DNA of 64,000 nt from Squalus acanthias (lineage: Eukaryota). The stretch spans positions 131,502,001-131,566,000 of the forward strand of contig CM059434.1 in the NCBI GenBank assembly GCA_030390025.1. Reading direction: 5' to 3'. The notes under the pieces were generated by a model. That model was not told where the DNA came from. It saw only the letters and a list, made by a program, of their open reading frames with translations, and ran no database searches. Position numbers and translations under genes: made by a program. The first letter of the stretch is position 1. Every line of letters begins with the position of its first letter. Shown piece by piece: positions 7,997 to 19,220 of this stretch.

Positions 7997-8056
7997 TAAT
8001 GATTTCAATTGGGTCGCCCACTGCTGCCGGTCGGTCGGCTCCGCAATGACAGACAC

Positions 8057-8722
8057 GGTAAGCTTTTTATTTCGACTGGTATTAAATTGACAGCAAGATC
8101 AATTCTTTTGGAACAATTTGGAATAAGTTTATTAAACACACACACTCATGCACATCAAAACAATAGCCTACTGGTATCTACGGACTCTACTCAATTACAA
8201 CAGGTAAGGTAATGGGTTAGATTTAAACAGACTTGCACTTCCCTGAGTCAAGCAATGCACGCGGCCTTTTTCCTTGCTTCTTGCTCTGGTCTGTAGAGGG
8301 AGGGCTTCCTGCTTTTCCGCATGGTCATCCAGAGAGAGAGAGAGAGCCTTTTATATCTTTTTAAGTCCATTGTCTCTAGTCTAAATTGCTAAGACCCCAG
8401 GATTGGGTCTTAGTTTCCTGGCAGTTCTTGATTGGCTTTCCTTTGAACATGTGTCTGTCTGCAGTGGCTGGGGCCATTTCTTGATTCAGTTAATTGTTTG
8501 TTAACACCTTTTAATGGCTCTTGAGTTTTGATGGTGAGTTTCGATGGTGTCTCTGTGGGGGTTTTCCTGTTATGCAGGTTTCCTTTGTTAGGTTTCACGC
8601 CGTTGCCTTGAGCTCCGCTCCCAGGGAGATCTTTACACATCAAATTCATCTTTATTACATACATCTGATATTGATAGTCTCGAGTCCATCACACATACAA
8701 AACATATATTTTTATTCTTACA
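8057..8722 (-). repeat. 3' LTR
   Basis: Direct repeat of 15754-17161. Minus strand has CCAAT boxes (~8401, ~8431), TATAAAA (~8350) and AATAAA (~8128-8133). Preceded by purine-rich GAGGCGGGGAATC (PPT, 8723-8735). Terminal base altered (GGTAAG instead of TGTAAG on the plus strand). Confidence 0.92.
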
Positions 8723-8770
8723 GATTCCCCGCCTCGAGGAGGAAATATCCTTATTGACCCCTCATTTGGT

Positions 8771-9013
8771 TTATCTCCTCAGGGCTCGCATATGGTGGTT
8801 CAGTTTCCTAAGGAGTTTTCTCAGGTAGCAGATCACGATGATCCCCACCACTACAATTATGGCTTGTGCCAGTATCATAAGCATTGAGAGGGTTCTGAGC
8901 CAGGGGTGTTGTCCTACATTATACATTGTTTCCCACCATGGACTGGCTCCTAGCTTTGTATAGCTCTGCTGTTTATGGCATTGTTCTGTGTCATCTGTAT
9001 TCGTATCATGGTC
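8771..9013 (-). CDS. 80-aa single-pass transmembrane ORF in the env position (small TM protein or env remnant)
   Basis: Stop-free from the acceptor ACTGAACTTGTTTCCCACAG (AG at 9015-9014): DHDTNTDDTEQCHKQQSYTKLGASPWWETMYNVGQHPWLRTLSMLMILAQAIIVVVGIIVICYLRKLLRKLNHHMRALRR*. Confidence 0.65.
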   Translation of the reverse strand, partial: DHDTNTDDTEQCHKQQSYTKLGASPWWETMYNVGQHPWLRTLSMLMILAQAIIVVVGIIVICYLRKLLRKLNHHMRALRR

Positions 9014-9040
9014 CTGTGGGAAACAAGTTCAGTGTAGTGT

Positions 9041-10150
9041 TTACTCTTTGGCAGTTTTTAACTGGTTAATATGATACCATTTCTTGTACTTAACGCCTTT
9101 TCCCCCGGGTAACTGAATCAAATAAACCGCGGGGTTCAATCGGTCTGTAATCGTTTGCGGTCCCCACCACCTGGGCTCAAAGGCATGCTTCTTTTTCCCA
9201 TAATTTTGAATCATTACGGTGACCCCCACCTGATACTCAAAGGGACGTACTTTCTTGTCAAAGTACCTTTTAATTTGTCTTTTTGACTTCCCCAATTTCG
9301 TGGCCACAAATCGATTCATCTGATCGGTGCGATCGACCACTTGTTCCAGCCACTTGGAACTACATGGTTCATTGTCAAGGGGCTGATCCCCGTTAGTGTT
9401 AGCTGGCCTGGCGTTCTCATGAGTCTCCCCATAATGGCTCCTGCTGTTTTATGAGGTGTGGACCTTATTGCCATTAAGCACATTGGCAGCATGTTAGCCC
9501 ATCGAGTGGGGTGGTCCGCACACAATTATTTTACATTAACTTGAGGGTCCTGTACCCCCTTTCGACCCCTCTGGACGACTGGGGGTGGTGAGCAATATAT
9601 AGTTCGTGTTTTATCCCCAACATTTCCTGCAGGTGGGTAAAAATCTTACCGGTAAAGTGCGAACCTTGATCACTGTCCACTTGTACCGGTGACTCCCCAC
9701 CTACAAAACACATGATTTAATAGTGTTTTGGCTGCCATGATTGTGGTGTTGGAGCGGCAGGGGAATGCTTCGATCCATTTAGTGAATTGATCCACCACCA
9801 CTAGGACATGCTGAAAATTGCCTTGCGCCTGTGGAAGTGGCCCAATGAAGTCTATCTGGAGGTGAGTCCATGGCCCTTGAGGTGGGGGCGCGCTTTGAAG
9901 CGAGGCTCGGTTAGTGCACGTGGGAGGATTGTGCTGCAGGCACGGTCGGCATCGTGCCACATTAGGTTGATTGTTTCCCTCATGGAAGGCCACCCAGCTG
10001 TGGACGCTGCCTTATAGAAGGTCACCAGGGCCGAATAGTGCCCTGCCGTGGGGTGGGAGTGGAAGAGGGAGAGCAGTTCCTGACCCACCTCTGGTGGAAC
10101 ACACACCACCGGCCAGGCGTGTGGCTTTCTTTTGAACATCAGCAACTGCT
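9041..10150 (-). pseudogene. pol: Integrase domain of pol (frameshifted)
   Basis: HSHPTAGH...CRPC (HHCC), LQIDFIGPLP, VVVDQFTKWIEAFP, DSDQGSHFT, PQSSRGVER, PRWWGP, WYHINQLK. Confidence 0.93.
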
Positions 10151-10359
10151 CCGCTGAGTCAGGGGCAGTGGCTAGTATGGTATTGGGGGCCCAGGCTGTC
10201 GGTTGAGGAAGGGGTCTGCCTTCCTCGTGCCAGGCGCTTACAACGGCGTATGGCTAGTATTGCTGCTGCAGGGATTTTAAATCTAGGTGATCAGTTGGGG
10301 AGCCCTAGCTAACAGCATTGCAGGGCTCAACAACTATATCCTCTATCTCCCCATCAATC

Positions 10360-10790
10360 GCAGCGTCCTTGGCTGCTCTGTCTGCTCTGGAATTTCCCTC
10401 ACTATGTGGACCCCCTTTTCTATGGGCTGCTACCTTTCCTATGAAGCAGGGCTGGGATCGCTGTTTAAGGTATAACCAGAGCAGGCGTAACCAGGGCCCA
10501 TGGACCAGGGCCTTACTGTCTATTGTACGGTAGTCATTTTTGTGGTATGGGGCAAGGAGAGCACGGTGTTTATAGCACAGGCACTATCGGACCAAATATT
10601 CACGGGTCTATCTGAGGATTATTTCACGGCGGTTAGAAGTGCGGCGATTTCTGCATATTGTGAGGACTGTCAGTTGCATCATCGCTGGATGGTTCTCTCT
10701 GGCAATACCACAGCATACCCGGTGTGGGGGGATCCCTCGATGTGATACGAGGACCCATCAATGTAGACATCTGGGGCTCCCTGTATGGGC
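10360..10790 (-). pseudogene. pol: Retroviral-type RNase H domain of pol
   Basis: Manual translation gives VYIDGSS..GYAVV, SSQYAEIAALLTAV, VNIWSDS, KVAAH, GNSRADRAAK (D-E-D-H-D set), with in-frame stops. Confidence 0.88.
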
Positions 10791-10853
10791 TCTTTCTGCA
10801 CAGGATGGGTCTCAAAGTTAATCAGGGGTAGCGGACATTCATGCGGTTCCCCC

Positions 10854-11876
10854 TTGGACTTTCCGAAGGCTTTCGATAAGGTCCCGCATAAGAGATTAGC
10901 GTGTAAAGTTAAGGCACATGGGATTGGGGGCAAGGTATTGACTTGGATAGAGAACTGGTTGGCGGACAGAAAGCAAAGAGTTGGAATAAATGGGTCTTTT
11001 TCCGAGTGGCAGGCGGTGACTAGTGGGGTACCGCAGGGATCGGTCCTAGGACCCCAGCTATTCACAATATATATTAATGATCTGGACGATGGAATTGGAT
11101 GTAATATCTCCAAGTTTGCAGACGACGCAAAGCTGGGTGGGAGTGTGTGCCGTGAGGAGGATGCCGAGAAACTCCAGTATGATTTGGACAGGTTGGGTGA
11201 TTGGGCAGAAGCATGGCAGATGCAATATAATGTGGATAAATGCGAGGTTATCCACTTTGGTGTCAAAAACAGGAAGGCAGATTATTATCTGAAAGGCAAT
11301 AGATTGGGAGAAGGGGAAGTGCAACGAGACCTGGGTGTCCTTGTGCACCAATCGCTGAAGGTAAGCATGCAGGTGCAGCAGGCGGTTAAGAAGGCAAATG
11401 GTATGTTGGCCTTCGTAGCGAAAGGGTTCGAGTACAGGAACAAGGATGTCTTGCTGCAGTTGTACAGGGCCTTGGTGAGACCACATCTTGAGTATTGTGT
11501 GCAGTTTTGGTCGCCTTATCTGAGGAAGGATGTTCTTGCCATGGAGGGAGTGCAGCGAAGATTCACCAGGCTGATACCCGGGATGGCAGGAATGGCGTAT
11601 GAGGAGAGATTGGGTCGATTGGGCTTATACTCACTGGAGTTTAGAAGAATGAGAGGGGATCTCATTGAAACTTATAAAATTCTAACAGGACAGGACAGAC
11701 TAGATGCGGGAAGGATGTTCCCGATGGCCGGGGAGTCCAGAACCAGGGGTCACAGTCTAAGATGAGGCGGTAAGCCATTTAGGACTGAGATGAGGAGGAA
11801 TTTCTTCACCCAGAGAGTGGTGAACCTGTGGAATTCTCTACCACAGAAGGCAGTAGAGGCCAATTCATTAAATATA
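10854..11876 (+). mobile_element. Internal CR1 ORF2 fragment inserted into the proviral pol; both ends truncated, no tail or TSD
   Basis: ORF 10785-11765 is CR1 RT from LDFPKAFDKV onward. Removing the fragment restores pol LPQFLVYE-GEPHEC. Confidence 0.9.
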
Positions 11877-13319
11877 TCATAAACCAGAAATTGTGGCAGC
11901 AATGTGGTGGGTTTGGAAATGATACCAATGTCTCTTTCCATAAATTCCAATGTCCATTTGCTGAGGCGCTGCGAGGAAACTAGCGAATCTCCAGGTTTCA
12001 TCAGTCGGTTCAGAGGCGTGTGAGCGCTGTGAAGGATGGTCACTTGTAGCCCAGAAATAAAGGTAAAATAATGTAGCGCCCAGAAGACGGCCAGCAGGTG
12101 GCGCTCACATGCAGGATTCGAGACGCATATGCAATGGGCTGTCGTCGATCAGCTCGCGTTCGGCACAGAACTGCGGCGAGGCTTTGTTCTGTGGCCCCAA
12201 CCTCCAAATGGAAGGACTGCGTGGGATCTGGAGGAATCAGACATGCGGCCTGCATCACTGCAGTTTTTAATTTGGCCACGGACTGGGTGTGAGCATCAGT
12301 CCATGCCGGGCGTAGGTCATCACCCTGCAGTTGTATCAAATCATACAGGGGCTTTGCGCACTCTGCAAAGCCTGGGATAAAGTTCCTTTGGTACCTCACC
12401 AAACCCAAGAATGGTCGTAGGGCTGTTTTGGAACTGGGTAATGGTAGTCGCTGTATTATCTCCACCTTGTGGGAGTCGGGGGATGATCCCTCTGGAGAAA
12501 TGGACGCTCCTAGAAAGGTGACCCGTTCTTTCACCAACTGAGCCTTCCGGGGATTCACCTTTAGTCCCGCCTGAGCCAACAATGTCAACACTTCGTGCAA
12601 AAGGGACCGATGCTCCTCCATGCTATCAGTTGCCAGCAGTAGATCGTCTACATACTGTAGCAAGCAGGTAGGGTGGGAAAAGTCTTTTAAAACTGCAGCC
12701 ATTCTTTTGTGGAAGATCGTGGGGGCATTGTGGAACCCCTGAGGCAGGCATGTCCAGGTGTAGCTCTGGTCCTCAAATGTGAACGCGAATTTGTACTGGT
12801 CCTCCCTTTTAACAGGGATACTCCAGAATCCATTGGCGATGTCGAGGGTCGAGAAGTACTTGGAACCAGCAGGATTTGAGATAATATGGTGGGAGCTCCT
12901 CTTACTACCGGTGAGCAGGCTGGCGTTACAGAATTTAACTTTCTGTAATCAATGGTCAGTCGCCAGCTGCTATCGGGCTTTTTAACTGGCCATGTGGGTG
13001 AATTGGTTGTGAAAGTGCCTGTCCTAACAACACCCTGCTCGACTAGGGATTTTATGGTGTCTCGGATGTAAGGGTGACTCTCCCTTGGGATGGGGTACTG
13101 TTTGGTGAATGAGTGGGGGGGTCCCTCAATAGACTTTTCGCCTGCCATTTTTCCACAATCGTGCTTGCACGTGGCAAACACCGCTCGGTATTCCTGAATT
13201 AGTTTTGCCACAGCTTCATTTTCGCTCCCCGGACGGTCACACTCGGATAGCTTTATAATAGCAAAAACAGAGTGAGCATCTGAAATTTCTATCACTTTTG
13301 CATTATTTCTCAATCCCAT
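11877..13319 (-). pseudogene. pol: Reverse transcriptase plus degenerate RNase H-like tether of pol
   Basis: NSPTWPVKKPDSSWRLTIDYRKLN, LPQGFHNAPTIFH, LLQYVDDLLL; tether FHLEVGATEQSLAAVL...PIAYASRIL lacks the catalytic DAS. Confidence 0.93.
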
Positions 13320-13720
13320 CTAAACACAGTCCCGATTGTAATCTATTACTGCGTCATTCTGATCCAACACATCAGTCCCTAAAATTCCCCTTCCGTCAGG
13401 GGTGGTCATCAGCATCGGCGCTGGGACCTCACAGGTGAGGCCTCCCAACTGAAGTTCAGAGGCCTTCCCTGTCTACGCGGTGGTTGTATCACCATTAAAC
13501 CCTTTAAGGGCCATACAACCCTTGCCCGCCGCTGCATGGCGTTCAGAGTATGGGGTGTGGATGATGGTAACGGCTGAGCCAGTGTCTATCAGCATAATCT
13601 GCTGCCGGCCCCCTTTTAAGATAACAAGGACTACTGGTCTCCCCGCTACCATCACATCGTAACCCCAGTTCCGACCAATCTTTGGGGGCCAAACCCCGTC
13701 ATAGAGTGGATCCTTGGAGG
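13320..13720 (-). pseudogene. pro: Retropepsin protease
   Basis: MLIDTGSAVTII in ORF 13473-13988; GILGTDVL near 13365-13390. Confidence 0.85.
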
Positions 13721-13917
13721 GGTCCCTCCAATAGGTGTGCATTGACGATAGGGTTTTGCATTCCCAATGGGTGTGCATTGGCGATTGCGTGCACCGGTAA
13801 ATGATTTTGCATCCCCCCCCCCCCCCGTGACAATTTGGGCTTTCATGAGGGTTATCAACTGGTCCAATTGTTGATCCGTCCCAGAGGGCTTGGATTCGTC
13901 CTTTTTTAGAAGGGTAA

Positions 13918-15583
13918 CTAACTGAGCCAATTGTTGTTCCATCCAGAGGGTTTGGGTTCGTTCCTCGGGAGGTATCTATGCGTTGCATCGTGATCCGGTG
14001 CCTGTCTGGGTCTCCGGCAGTGTTTTGCTCGGTGACCTTCCTTCTTACAATTAAAGCACTGTCCCCTAAAGGGGTAGTACCTCGATCCCTCCACCGCTGA
14101 CACTGCTTTCTTTGCGGTGGGTGGTGACTTCACCTTTAACTGGTCTTTTACCATCTCCCAGGCTCTTTGAACGTTAGTCTCTATATTTGTCCACTGATCG
14201 GCGGGCCTCGCGGCTATGCCCAGGGTGGTTTTAACGAGAGTGGAGTTGGGTCAGGAACGTTGTTCTGAATTGTTCCTGGTCCTTTCTTGCTGCAGCATGT
14301 GCGGGTGCCTGGTTCTGGGGACGTTCACAGATATCGTACAGGCGATTACTGAAGGCTCTAGGGGTCTCATCTGGGCGCTGTTCAGTCTGACTAAGCATAG
14401 CCACTAAGTTTAAGTTTTGGATCCCTAAATGGTTTAGGATCTCGGTCACGACTGCATCGGTCGCTGTGCCACGCTGGAGGATCACGTCTGGCAGATTATT
14501 CTTTAAAGAAGTGGAACAGGCCAAGAGGAGGACGCGTGTTAAGTCTCCCTCGTCTAACTCTGGGTGACACCTCCTGAAATCTGCCCACCTTCTATTAACT
14601 ACCAGTGGGTCGTCCCCATCATTAATGGGCCCCAACTCGTGGCTACACACCGTGGCGTCAGTACCAAATATGGGCCGTGAGTCGGTATGGTTACTAATGA
14701 TGTGACCATGCACGTTACGCTGTAAAGAGGTGGTCACTACTGCTACGGTTGGCCCTTGTGTCTCCAAGGTATCCCATCCTACACCGCCCTCCTGGGGATT
14801 ATACTGACTGCCTTCCTCTTCCCAATCTGTCTCCCCCTCGTCCCCTTCTGTTGTCTCTGTTCTGGCTCCCCGTGTTACTGCGGATACTAGAGCCTGTTGC
14901 TGCCCTAATTTACTCTTTAGCCGCGCTATTTCTAGGTGGCACCGGGAGTGGTCTGCCTCCCTATGTGGCTTCTTAATTGCTTCCCTTAATGCCCCCCTAA
15001 CGTCTTCTACTTCCTGACGGAGCCCCAGGTTTTCCAATTTAGATTTCTTGATGGCTAATCTGGTTTCATTTGCTGCAGCGACGGCTGCTCCTGCATTTAA
15101 ATTTGAGAGGCTTCGTTGCTGTAGCAATGAAGCTGCCTGCTCGGCTCCTCTTTCTAGTTGCCTGATACTGTGGCTTAATCGATCGATTTCTTGTCTCAAA
15201 TGCTGGCTTTCTCCCTCCTTTAACTGCCTAACAAGCTGGATGCCTTCTTCTTTCTGTTCTTTCATACTTTGAATCTCTTTTTCTTTTAGTTGAATTTCTT
15301 TGACTTTTAGTTCTTTTAAATCTTGTATCTCTCCCTTTAAATCTCGAATCTCTTTTGCATCCTGCCTCATCAATTCCTCATCTCTCCGAGCACAGTAATG
15401 TGCCCCGAATGCCAAGAGACCGTTTGCCTGTTTGGGCCTTAGCTTTCCCTCATCTACCCTCTCCTGGATAAATGCCACGAGCTCCCCAAAGGCCGCATGT
15501 TGGCCCTTACAGATGTATCGTGCCCGTAACTCTTGTAAGTCCCTTATGGACACCTTTTCGTATATTTTTTTCTGGTAGGCCAC
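13918..15583 (-). pseudogene. gag: Gag (coiled-coil N-terminal region, capsid-like region, CCHC knuckle), frameshifted
   Basis: 450-aa ORF 14231-15583 immediately after the PBS; Q.PDETPRAFSNRL motif; CFNCKKEGHRAKHC in ORF 13918-14154. Confidence 0.88.
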
Positions 15584-15732
15584 AGCTACGGCTTTTGCTG
15601 GCTTTTCCTATGCCCCCGATCCCTTCCTCCTGTGTCTTTTGAATTTACTGTTAAACTTTGCACCGCAGGTTAGAATCGCAACTCCCAAAATTTCCAATTG
15701 TTTAACAGAATGATCGAAAGCTGTCTCGCCAG

Positions 15733-15749
15733 ATCCCAATGAGCCCCCA
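15733..15749 (-). promoter_or_regulatory. Primer-binding site, tRNA-Pro-like
   Basis: TGGGGGCTCATTGGGAT, 4 nt after the 5' LTR; the canonical Pro PBS is TGGGGGCTCGTCCGGGAT. Confidence 0.8.
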
Positions 15750-15753
15750 GTTT

Positions 15754-17161
15754 TGTAAGCTTTTTATTTTGACTGGCATTAAATTAACAGCAAGACCAAT
15801 TCTTTTGAAACTATTTGGAATAAGTTCATTAAACACACACACTCGTGCACATCAAAACAATAGCCTACTGGTATCTACGGACTCTACTCAATTACAACAG
15901 GTAAGGTAATGGGTTAGATTTAAACAGACTTGTACTTCCCTGAGTCAAGCAATGCACGCGGCCTTTTTCCTTGCTTCTTGGTCTGGTCCTTCAGTGTGCC
16001 AGTACAGCCTTCGGTCACCTGAGGAAGAGAGTGTTTGAAGACCAGGACCTCAAACCCGGCACCAAGCTCATGGTCTACAGAGCAGTAGTGATACCCGCCC
16101 TCCTGTATGCCTCAGAGACATGGACCATGTACAGCAGGCACCTCAAAGCACTGGAGCAGTACTACCAATGCTGTCTTTGCAAGATACTGCAAATCCATTG
16201 GCAGGATAGGCGTACCAACGTCAGTGTTCTCGCTCAGGCCAACATCCCCAGCATCGAAGCTTTGACCACACTCGATCAGCTCCGATGGACGGGCCACATC
16301 GTCCGCATGCCCGATACGAGACTCCCAAAACAAGCGCTCTACTCGGAGCTGTGACGGGGCATGAGAGCCCCAAGTGGGCAGAGGAAACGCTTCAAGGACA
16401 CCCTCAAAGCCTCCTTGAAAAAGTGCAACATCCCCACCGACACCTGGGAATCCCTGGCCCAAGACCGCACAAAGTGGAGGAGAATCATCTGGGAAGGCAC
16501 CGAACACCTCGAGTCTCTTTGCCGGGAGCAAGCGGAAGCCAAGCGCGAACAGTGGAAGGAGCGCACGTCAACCCAAGCACCCCACCCACCCGCCCCTTCA
16601 ACCACCGTCTGCCCCACCTGTGACAGAGACTGTAGGTCCCGCATTGGACTCATCAGTCACCTGAGAACTCATTTTTAATGTGGAAGCAAGTCATCCTCGG
16701 TTCCGAGGGACTGCCTAAGAAGAGAGGGAGGGCTTCCTGCTTTTCCGCTTGGTCATCCAGAGAGAGAGCGAGAGCCTTTGGGTTCCTTATTTTATATCTT
16801 TTTAAGTCCATTGTCTCTAGTCTAAATTGCTAAGACCCCAGGATTGGGTCTTAGTTTCCTGGCAGTTCTTGATTGGCTTTCCTTTGAACAAGTGTCTGTC
16901 TGCAGTGGCTGGGGCCATTTCTTGATTCAGTTAATTGTTTGTTAACACCTTTTAATGGCTCTTGAGTTTCGATGGGTTTTCGATGCTGTCTCTGTGGGGG
17001 TTTTCCTGTTATGCAGGTTTCCTTTGTTAAGTTTCGCGCCGTTGCCTTGAGCTCCGCTCCCAGGGAGATCCATACACATCAAATTCATCTTTATTACATA
17101 CATCTTATATTAATAGTCTCGAGTCCATCACACATACAAAACATATATTTTTATTCTTACA
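15754..17161 (-). repeat. 5' LTR, interrupted by an RTE fragment
   Basis: TGTAAG...CTTACA termini; colinear with 8057-8722 once 15986-16722 is removed. Confidence 0.92.
15986..16722 (+). mobile_element. RTE-clade LINE 3' fragment inserted in the 5' LTR
   Basis: AFGHLRKRVF, LLYASETW, LRWTGHIVRMPDTRLPKQ, C-terminal CPTC..C..H..H; TAAGAAG tail. Confidence 0.9.
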
Positions 17162-19220
17162 AGGCGATGGATAGGATGCTAATCAAGCGGACTGCTTTGT
17201 CCTGGATGGTGTCGAGCTTCTTGAGTGTTGTTGGAGCTGCACTCATCCAGGGAATTGAAGAGTATTCCATCACACTCTTGTCTTGTGCCTTGTAGATGGT
17301 GGAAAGGCTTTGGGGAGTCAGGAGGTGAGACACTCGCCGCAGAATACCTAGCCTCTGACCTGCTCTTGTTGCCACAGTATTGATGTGGCTGGTCCAGTTA
17401 AATTTCTGGTCAATGGTGACCCCCCCCAGGATGTTGATGGTTCGGGATTTGACGATGGTAATGTCGTTGAATGTCAAGGGGCGGTGGTTAGACACTTTCT
17501 TGTTGGAGATGGTCATTTCCAGGTACTTGTTAGGCATGAATGTTAGCTGCCAATTATCAGCCCAAGCCTGGATGCTGTCCGGGGCTTGCTGCACGCAGGC
17601 ATGGACTGCTTCATTATCTGGGGGAATGCGAATGGAACTGAACACTGTGCAATCATCAGTGACCATCCCCAATTCTGACCTTATGATGGAAGTAAGGTCA
17701 TTGATGAAGCAGCTGAAGATGGCTGGGCCCAGGACACTGCCCTGAGGAACTCCTGCAGCGATGTCCTGGGGCTAAGATGATTGGCCTCCAACAACCATAA
17801 TCATCTTCCTTTGTGCTAGGTATGACTCCAGCCAGTGGAGAGTTTTCTCCTCATTCCCATTGACTTCAGTTTTACTAGGGCTCCTTGATGCCACACTCGG
17901 TCAAATGCTGCCTTGATGTCAAGAGCAGTCACTCTCACCTCACCTCTGGAATTCAGCTCCTTTGTCCATGTTTGGACCAAGGCTGTCATGAGTTCTGGAG
18001 CTGAGTGGTCCTGGCGGAACCCAAACTGGGCATCAGTGAGCAGGTTATTGGTGAGTAAGTGCCGCTTGATAGCACTGTTGATGACACCTTCCATCACTTT
18101 GCTGATGATTGTGAGTAGACTGATGGAGCGGTAATTGGTCGGATTGGATTCATCCTGCTTTTTGTGGACAGGATATAGCTGGGCAATTTTCTGCTTTGTC
18201 AGGTAGATACTAGTTTGATAGCTGTACTGGAACAGCTTGGCTAGAGGCGTGACTGGTTCTGATACACAAGTCTTCAACACTACAGGTGGGATGTTGTCGG
18301 GGTCCATAGCCTTTACTGTTTCCAGTGCGCTGAGACATGACTGCATGTGGCAGGACTGCAGAACTTTGAACTGATCCATTGGTTGTGGGATCGCTTGCCT
18401 CTGTCTATAGCATGCTGCTTCTGCTGTTTAGCATGCATGTAGACCCGAGTTGTAGCTTCAGCAGGTTGGCACCTCATTTTCTAGTACGGCTGGTGCTGCT
18501 GTGGCACTCCTCTTTGAACCAGGGTTGGTTGCCTGGCTTGATGGTCATGGTAGAGTGAGGAATATGAGGTTACAGATTGTGGTGGCATACAATTCTGCTG
18601 CTGCTGATGGCCCACAGCACCTCATGGATGCCCAGTTTTGAGCTGCTAGATCTGTTGTGAATCTATCCCATTTAGCACGGTGGTAGTGCCACACAACACG
18701 ATGGAGGGTGTCCCAAGTGTGAAGACGGAACTGCATCTCCACAAGGACTGTGCAGTGGTCACTCCTACCAATACTGTCATGGACAGATGCATCTGCGACA
18801 GGTAGTGGGTGAGGACGAGGTCAAGTAGGTTTTTCCCGCGCGTTGCTTCTCTCACCACCTGTCGTAAGCCCAGTCTGGCAACTATGTCGTTCAGGGCGCG
18901 GCCAGCTTGATCAGTAGTGGTGCTACCAAGCCCCTCTTCGTGATGGACATTGAAGTTCCCCCATGCAGAGTACATTCTGGGCCCTTGCCACTCTCAGTGC
19001 TTCTTCCACGTGGTGTTCAACATGGAGGAGTACTGATTCATCAGCTGAGGGAGGGCGGTAGGTGGTAATCAGCAGGAGGTTTCCTTGCCCATGCTGGACC
19101 TGAAGCCATGAGACTTCATGGGGTCCGGAGCCAATGTTGAGGACTCCCAGTACCCTCCCTCCCGACTGTATACCACTGTGCCGCCACCCCTGTTGGGTCT
19201 GTCCTGCCGGTGGGACAGAT
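17162..19220 (-). mobile_element. Degraded LINE of a second CR1-like family (APE plus RT), cut at its 3' side by the LTR
   Basis: GNFNVHH, LLDLVLT, NYRSISLL, QFGFRQ, LDIKAAFDRVWHQG, WADNWQLTF in ORFs 17157-18975. Confidence 0.85.

Follow-up and report, generated by a model that had tools for sequence, protein, structure and literature searches.

An env-deleted form is the commonest copy of a Squalus acanthias endogenous retrovirus and carries a short in-frame Env stump, most likely as a passenger

The 64,000-nt stretch of Squalus acanthias DNA analysed here (the window; contig CM059434.1 of assembly GCA_030390025.1, positions 131,502,001 to 131,566,000 of the forward strand) contains a damaged LTR element on the minus strand. 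The element spans about 17161 to 8058 of the window and is arranged as 5′ LTR, gag, pol, a 319-nt interval, and 3′ LTR. Its features, in element order, are:

15754..17161, minus strand: 5′ LTR with TGTAA...TTACA ends, 93.6% and 95.7% identical to the 3′ LTR in two blocks
about 15989-16722: LINE-like insert of ~735 nt that splits the 5′ LTR
15733..15749, minus strand: primer-binding-site-like stretch, 4 nt past the LTR
13918..15607, minus strand: gag, broken, with a coiled-coil-rich N-terminal half and a zinc knuckle (zf-CCHC, E 0.0011)
9041..13900, minus strand: pro-pol, broken, with RT, tether, second RNase H, and integrase
9014..9033, minus strand: env splice-acceptor-like tract; the same tract precedes env in full-env copies
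9000..9009, minus strand: env start codon and first 3–4 codons (start of the signal peptide, the remainder deleted)
8998..9000, minus strand: deletion junction A, where ~1.8 kb of env is lost, with a 2-nt overlap
8771..8999, minus strand: last ~76 codons of env, comprising a membrane-proximal helix, an aromatic stretch, a transmembrane segment (TM), a juxtamembrane Cys, and a basic tail
about 8890-8822, minus strand: TM within the env tail
8723..8735, minus strand: polypurine-tract-like stretch, read directly from the sequence
8058..8722, minus strand: 3′ LTR

The primer-binding-site-like stretch at 15733..15749 presumably resembles a tRNA-Pro primer-binding site. No target-site duplication is visible at window 17161-17180 / 8038-8057, and the 3′ LTR is without its last base. 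A LINE fragment is inserted in the RNase H region of pol, at about 10855-11878. Pfam matches in pol are RVT_1 (8.7e-33), RT_RNaseH_2 (3.5e-15), rve (9.4e-06), and RNase_H; the last of these, corresponding to the second RNase H, is weak (E 0.0089) and under the curated cut-off. The RT is 48–55% identical to two coelacanth proteins. The best PDB matches of pol are to Pr125Pol of foamy virus (1.2e-44), a likeness to the Spumaretrovirinae that reflects similarity rank among few solved RTs. Foamy viruses carry accessory genes between env and the 3′ LTR, whereas there are none here, and the env stop lies 49 nt before the LTR.

Lokiretroviruses, according to the excerpted text of PMC7947760, have a dual RNase H and an Env related to the F protein of Mononegavirales, and the present element resembles them in its dual RNase H, in its predicted F-like Env, and, by eye, in several RT motifs. 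It differs in carrying PQGF in the RT where the loki sequences compared have PFG, in the greater length of its Env (~680–760 aa), and in having foamy virus as best PDB match of its RT, whose motifs are mixed when compared by eye. The gag frame at window 14231-15607 has a long coiled-coil-like N-terminal half which, by eye, is like the loki Gag in the PMC7947760 supplement. One row in the consulted part of that supplement reads Orectolobiformes, Chondrichthyes, 3, 0, which we take as three genomes screened and none positive.

The interval between the pol stop (9043-9041) and the 3′ LTR, which starts at 8722, had been put at about 320 bp in a preliminary description of this DNA, in which a tiny spliced transmembrane ORF was proposed to stand in the place of env. 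Most of the anatomy given there is borne out. An acceptor-like tract ending in AG at 9015-9014 lies directly behind the pol stop, and a frame without stops runs from 9028 to the TAA at 8773-8771, giving 85 codons, of which 80 lie past the AG. The frame encodes one hydrophobic helix (Kyte-Doolittle 19-mer maximum 3.0) followed by 6 K/R in 15 residues, as claimed. The ACC-ATG at 9009 is present too. Its frame had been thought to meet the TM frame after a shift; in sister copies the ATG frame itself is continuous with the TM, for a product of 79 aa, or of 74 aa if codon 75 is a stop. The window copy carries a frameshift near 8955, where 4/4 public runs compared differ from it, and its ATG frame closes after 19 codons. 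The acidic N-terminal part that had been described is an off-frame reading exposed by this frameshift, peculiar to the frame of the window copy.

Openness of the 85-codon frame alone is weak evidence, because a stop-free run of this length arises in 257/5000 shuffles of the interval; the frame is real because of its homology to env. Against a 759-aa sister Env, the short ORF aligns over its residues 4-71 with residues 676-743 (43% identity, E 1e-20). The 79-aa product has its hydropathy peak at 43-61, its topology being read from hydropathy alone, with no Cys before the TM and one juxtamembrane Cys. By eye, the tail looks amphipathic.

When a natural 79-aa copy served as protein query against the genome, it matched the ends of long open frames, and these are env genes. 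Five copies of the same family (L032, L036, L039, L041, and L058) carry an env of ~2.1 kb net of later inserts, in which the same acceptor and ATG are followed by a signal peptide and the same tail, and both halves match the short form at 93–98%. The short ORF thus consists of the first 3–4 codons and the last ~76 codons of env, joined in frame, with ~1.8 kb missing. Of the two options entertained in the preliminary description, these copies establish the env with a large internal deletion.

The parent Env family is, by prediction, F-like in the manner of paramyxo/pneumoviruses. In a sister family, an env frame that is free of stops over 784 codons (L042:5621-7972) encodes a basic cleavage site, then a glycine-rich hydrophobic stretch, and a cysteine-rich body; this env may be young or maintained, and the adjacent pol is split into several frames. 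Among named proteins, the nearest relatives of the Env come from sharks. A single-sequence fold of a sister Env reached a pLDDT of 32.6, and an alignment-based model was used instead, that of the named shark homologue P0057 from 41 relatives (pLDDT 62.5). Foldseek matched this model to F of hMPV, RSV, and hPIV3 at E 2e-8, with TM-scores of only ~0.2, and Atlas gave 0.91 to PF00523 clusters for the Env relatives. The Pfam F-like match of an Env relative (E 0.036) is below cut-off, and neither a profile search of PDB nor a Pfam scan with the 41 aligned Env relatives returned anything significant. On this prediction, the short ORF would correspond to the membrane-proximal helix, TM, and tail of an F-like protein from which the fusion peptide has been deleted. 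Among the named relatives, P0056 and P0057 are intact Envs from sharks of different genera that are 86% identical, gapless, over 734 residues; their closest relatives in this genome are 63–83% identical, nearly all with stops. A co-opted env or a cross-species transfer is possible for this pair.

The genome was searched with a pattern for the acceptor and ATG that is blind to downstream sequence (reversed control, 0 matches), and all 74 places found were fetched and classed. Junction A occurs in 62/74 of them, 51 simple and 11 with a second deletion of 80 nt, and full env in only 4/74. The env-deleted form is therefore the commonest copy in the genome and the main form of its family, not a one-off, contrary to the expectation that a simple remnant would be unique to this locus. 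The remaining 8/74 places hold five other deletions, three of them with junctions out of frame: B1 (in frame) in two places, B2 (out of frame) in three, and three singles, one locally in frame and two out. Six extra copies were found outside the pattern (four with junction A, one B2, one full env), which brings the out-of-frame B2 to four dispersed copies in all. Contigs of runs X2 and X9, from two further organisms, bridge junction A. The 11 junction-A copies that are TM-less (L071-L076, L080-L083, and L085) are all on unplaced contigs with similar 5′ truncations and are probably segmental duplicates.

Lesion and pN/pS tests were conducted on 35/55 class-A copies, the other 20 being dropped for insertions, truncation, or poor coverage; about 12 of these have inserts or cuts inside the ORF, and dropping them favours the ORF. 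Over 34 copies, the ORF has accumulated 0.89 lesions per 100 codons, and the last 140 codons of integrase 0.90. This equality of lesion density, along with the early closure of the window copy's ATG frame, contradicts the earlier statement that the frame stays open despite the lesions in gag and pol. The pN/pS of the ORF is 0.68 (95% interval 0.43-1.18) and that of the integrase end 0.60 (0.43-0.84); the method has a bias to values below 1, with off-frame controls at 0.78-0.96. A dN/dS below 1 had been proposed as a check on the frame; the interval of the ORF's pN/pS includes 1. The frame is open to codon 74 in 21/35 copies, where a simulation of neutral decay expects 53% (p 0.26); counting intact copies by regular expression (25/55) missed some open ones, and that count was set aside. 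Across the 225-nt retained tail, the 35 short copies are separated from the 5 full-env ones at no column, and the net divergence is 0.002.

A tree of 53 copies built from 1 kb of integrase (26/79 rows left out, including all 11 TM-deleted copies; bootstraps rough) is star-like, with end branches of about 0.023, and the full-env copies are scattered among the short ones and are of the same age. The decay results remove the argument that the frame was kept open and argue against host maintenance or adaptation. It is hardly conceivable that the host co-opted one mini-ORF copy as a gene: open frames, and nothing further, speak for it, the window copy is frameshifted, and the share of open copies is the neutral expectation.

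Together with the junction, the full-env sisters, and the shared breakpoint, this star-like burst and the neutral decay since insertion make it probable that the short ORF, made of the env start and the env tail by an in-frame deletion, was a passenger as the env-deleted form multiplied. The deletion would have arisen by reverse transcriptase template switching at a 2–5-nt overlap, and the acceptor, ATG, TM, and basic tail would have survived because it fell between them. After the loss of Env, the element may have multiplied in the germ line through intracellular retrotransposition, or with an Env borrowed from contemporary full-length copies, which could have complemented it because they are of the same age. 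The shortened, Env-less genome would thereby have overtaken its parent in a single burst. Splicing and translation, if they occur, would yield a 79-aa single-pass Env stump with neither signal peptide nor fusion peptide.

Env-deleted lineages amplified by retrotransposition, with an env remnant free of constraint, are described in the relevant sections of PMC4643047 for cat FcERV-gamma6 and bat MLERV1_3, and 29/43 FcERV-gamma6 proviruses are given there as having one common env-removing breakpoint; the same source cites the ‘superspreader’ model of Magiorkinis et al. 2012. As far as that account goes, the present family is similar in that one breakpoint is common to many copies, most of env is gone, and deleted copies far outnumber env-bearing ones. 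It differs in its in-frame junction, which keeps ATG, TM, and tail, in an Env that is F-like by prediction and not of gamma type, and in the equal age of its full-env and deleted copies, which are not basal and derived. In HERV-K(HML-2) type 1, a 292-bp deletion lies near the env start, and Np9 needs a second splice and a change of frame (PMC4351823, in excerpt). There too, a deletion near the env start in many proviruses leads to a small ORF from the env start codon; here, by comparison with that excerpt, ~1.8 kb is gone at the DNA level, the env frame and TM are kept, and there is no known function.

Several observations sit less easily with a passenger. In the dominant form, the env ATG shares its frame with TM and tail and stands immediately past the acceptor, and the frame is kept at two more junctions, although 3/6 in-frame junctions is the chance expectation (p 0.32), in a count where B1 and B2 have a common re-entry point and are perhaps not independent. 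The decay tests, moreover, cannot see selection during spread: the star-like burst gives no internal branch to measure, and the tests are blind to a use of the stump at that stage because integrase, needed then, decays equally. The ORF may also be expressed. Although none of the public sequencing runs searched is recorded as RNA, one contig of run X1, whose type is guessed as RNA, departs from the element precisely at the acceptor (9014), and its 253 further letters match nothing in the stretch compared. This contig fits splicing onto the acceptor and partly answers the earlier proposal to look for RNA junctions ending at 9013, as a single contig from a run of guessed type. Most sister families likewise have an acceptor-like tract behind the pol stop, so that the acceptor is ordinary env anatomy.

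These points leave some room, though little, for the idea that the Env-less element kept its spliced 79-aa TM stump because the stump aided spread, possibly as a fusogen like the FAST proteins. In its specific form, a FAST/sORF2-like cell-cell fusogen carried the Env-less element from somatic to germ cells and was selected during the burst, which we regard as improbable. The product has the size and layout used by Voichek et al. in the excerpted text of their preprint (10.1101/2025.03.14.642691): at 79 aa it lies within 60-210 aa, with a single TM, an N-terminal part within 10-50 aa, and 6 K/R in the 15 residues after the TM, where at least 3 are asked. The short form also dominates its family, and its acceptor may be used. 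The polybasic tail is not diagnostic of FAST, however, because full Env proteins carry one too (4, 4, and 3 K/R in the same 15 residues; a fourth has 2). FAST proteins typically bear features such as myristoylation or a cystine noose (PMC7412057). Neither an N-myristoylation motif MGxxxS/T nor a p10-type cystine noose with di-cysteine was found in the 79-aa product, although 2/6 fly sORF2 proteins in the excerpt of Voichek et al. are also without the myristoylation motif. The deletion took the fusion peptide and almost the whole F-like ectodomain, there has been no sequence change since then, out-of-frame forms spread too, and 11 further copies lost the TM by their second deletion. MDG1-group sORF2 and reovirus FAST proteins, as presented in these partial sources, resemble the product in size, single TM, short N-terminal part, and juxtamembrane basic cluster, but are accessory ORFs unrelated to env and mostly have the myristoylation or cystine noose that this env fragment does not. 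The other option of the preliminary description, a minimal env substitute or fusogen, thus finds no positive support, its TM and basic tail being inherited from Env.

A non-fusogenic use of the stump in spread, for example steering Gag to an internal membrane via the tail or interfering with full-length Env, is very improbable. The dominant form retains both TM and cytoplasmic tail, complete and in frame, and the pN/pS of the tail is 0.46; against this, the tail interval of 0.21-1.19 includes 1, and codon 75 is a stop in 9/55 class-A copies.

Selection could instead have acted on the RNA. All six deletions re-enter env within the last ~200–385 nt before the LTR, so that something there may be kept, which counts against a pure passenger. 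The deletion would then have been favoured at the RNA level, this last part of env holding a needed cis element and the ORF being incidental; we judge this unlikely. In detail, deletion A would set an 11-nt stretch of the env tail beside its complement in the pyrimidine tract of the acceptor, hiding the acceptor and leaving more unspliced genome RNA. The 11-nt complement is perfect (9026-9016 / 8936-8926), arises by chance in 19/2000 shuffles (about 1%), and has arms that lie about 2 kb apart in full env and about 80 nt apart after deletion A; at least 10 pairs are kept in 42/66 junction-A copies, and the window interval folds at z -2.84. However, the complement was noticed post hoc, the z of a sister copy is only -0.92, no such complement occurs at the corresponding position in 12 sister-family loci, and a deletion in L056 removes the 3′ arm. 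A further suggestion, that the breakpoint regions pair with each other, is unsupported, as 62/200 shuffles are as low.

For the short ORF itself, protein searches with the 79-aa sequence gave no candidate among proteins of 43-139 aa and no usable match in Atlas, and Pfam gave weak TM matches only; none of these results is proof of novelty. The literature search retrieved no paper in which a fish ERV has a mini TM ORF derived from env; the supplementary sORF2 table of Voichek et al., outside the scope of that search, could bear on this.

Convergence of sister families on the same mini-env was considered and rejected. Env interior lay upstream of 32 of the 37 additional TM matches that were fetched; among the remaining five, L095 is cut by another repeat, and four are env tails inside an apparent LTR and not pol-linked spliced ORFs. 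In an older family (L098:2032-2330, L125, L115, and L109), the last ~90 env codons, with an internal Met, stand directly behind a sharp TGTAAG-type boundary. Of 47 matches, 23 begin at this boundary, and at the three loci checked the 8 kb upstream hold neither pol nor gag; the arrangement resembles an env tail within a solo LTR.

With the passenger reading, this family would be one more ERV that lost env and out-multiplied its infectious parent, in a little-studied lineage with a foamy/loki-like pol and a predicted F-like Env. It also carries a caution for screens that recognise FAST proteins by layout only, as an Env C-terminal stump passes most such filters. If the stump did aid spread, it would show how a small FAST-like protein can come from a viral fusion protein, and would extend Env-independent transfer to vertebrate retroelements; a selected stump would then be the first retroviral case of a class I fusion protein trimmed down to a minimal membrane protein.
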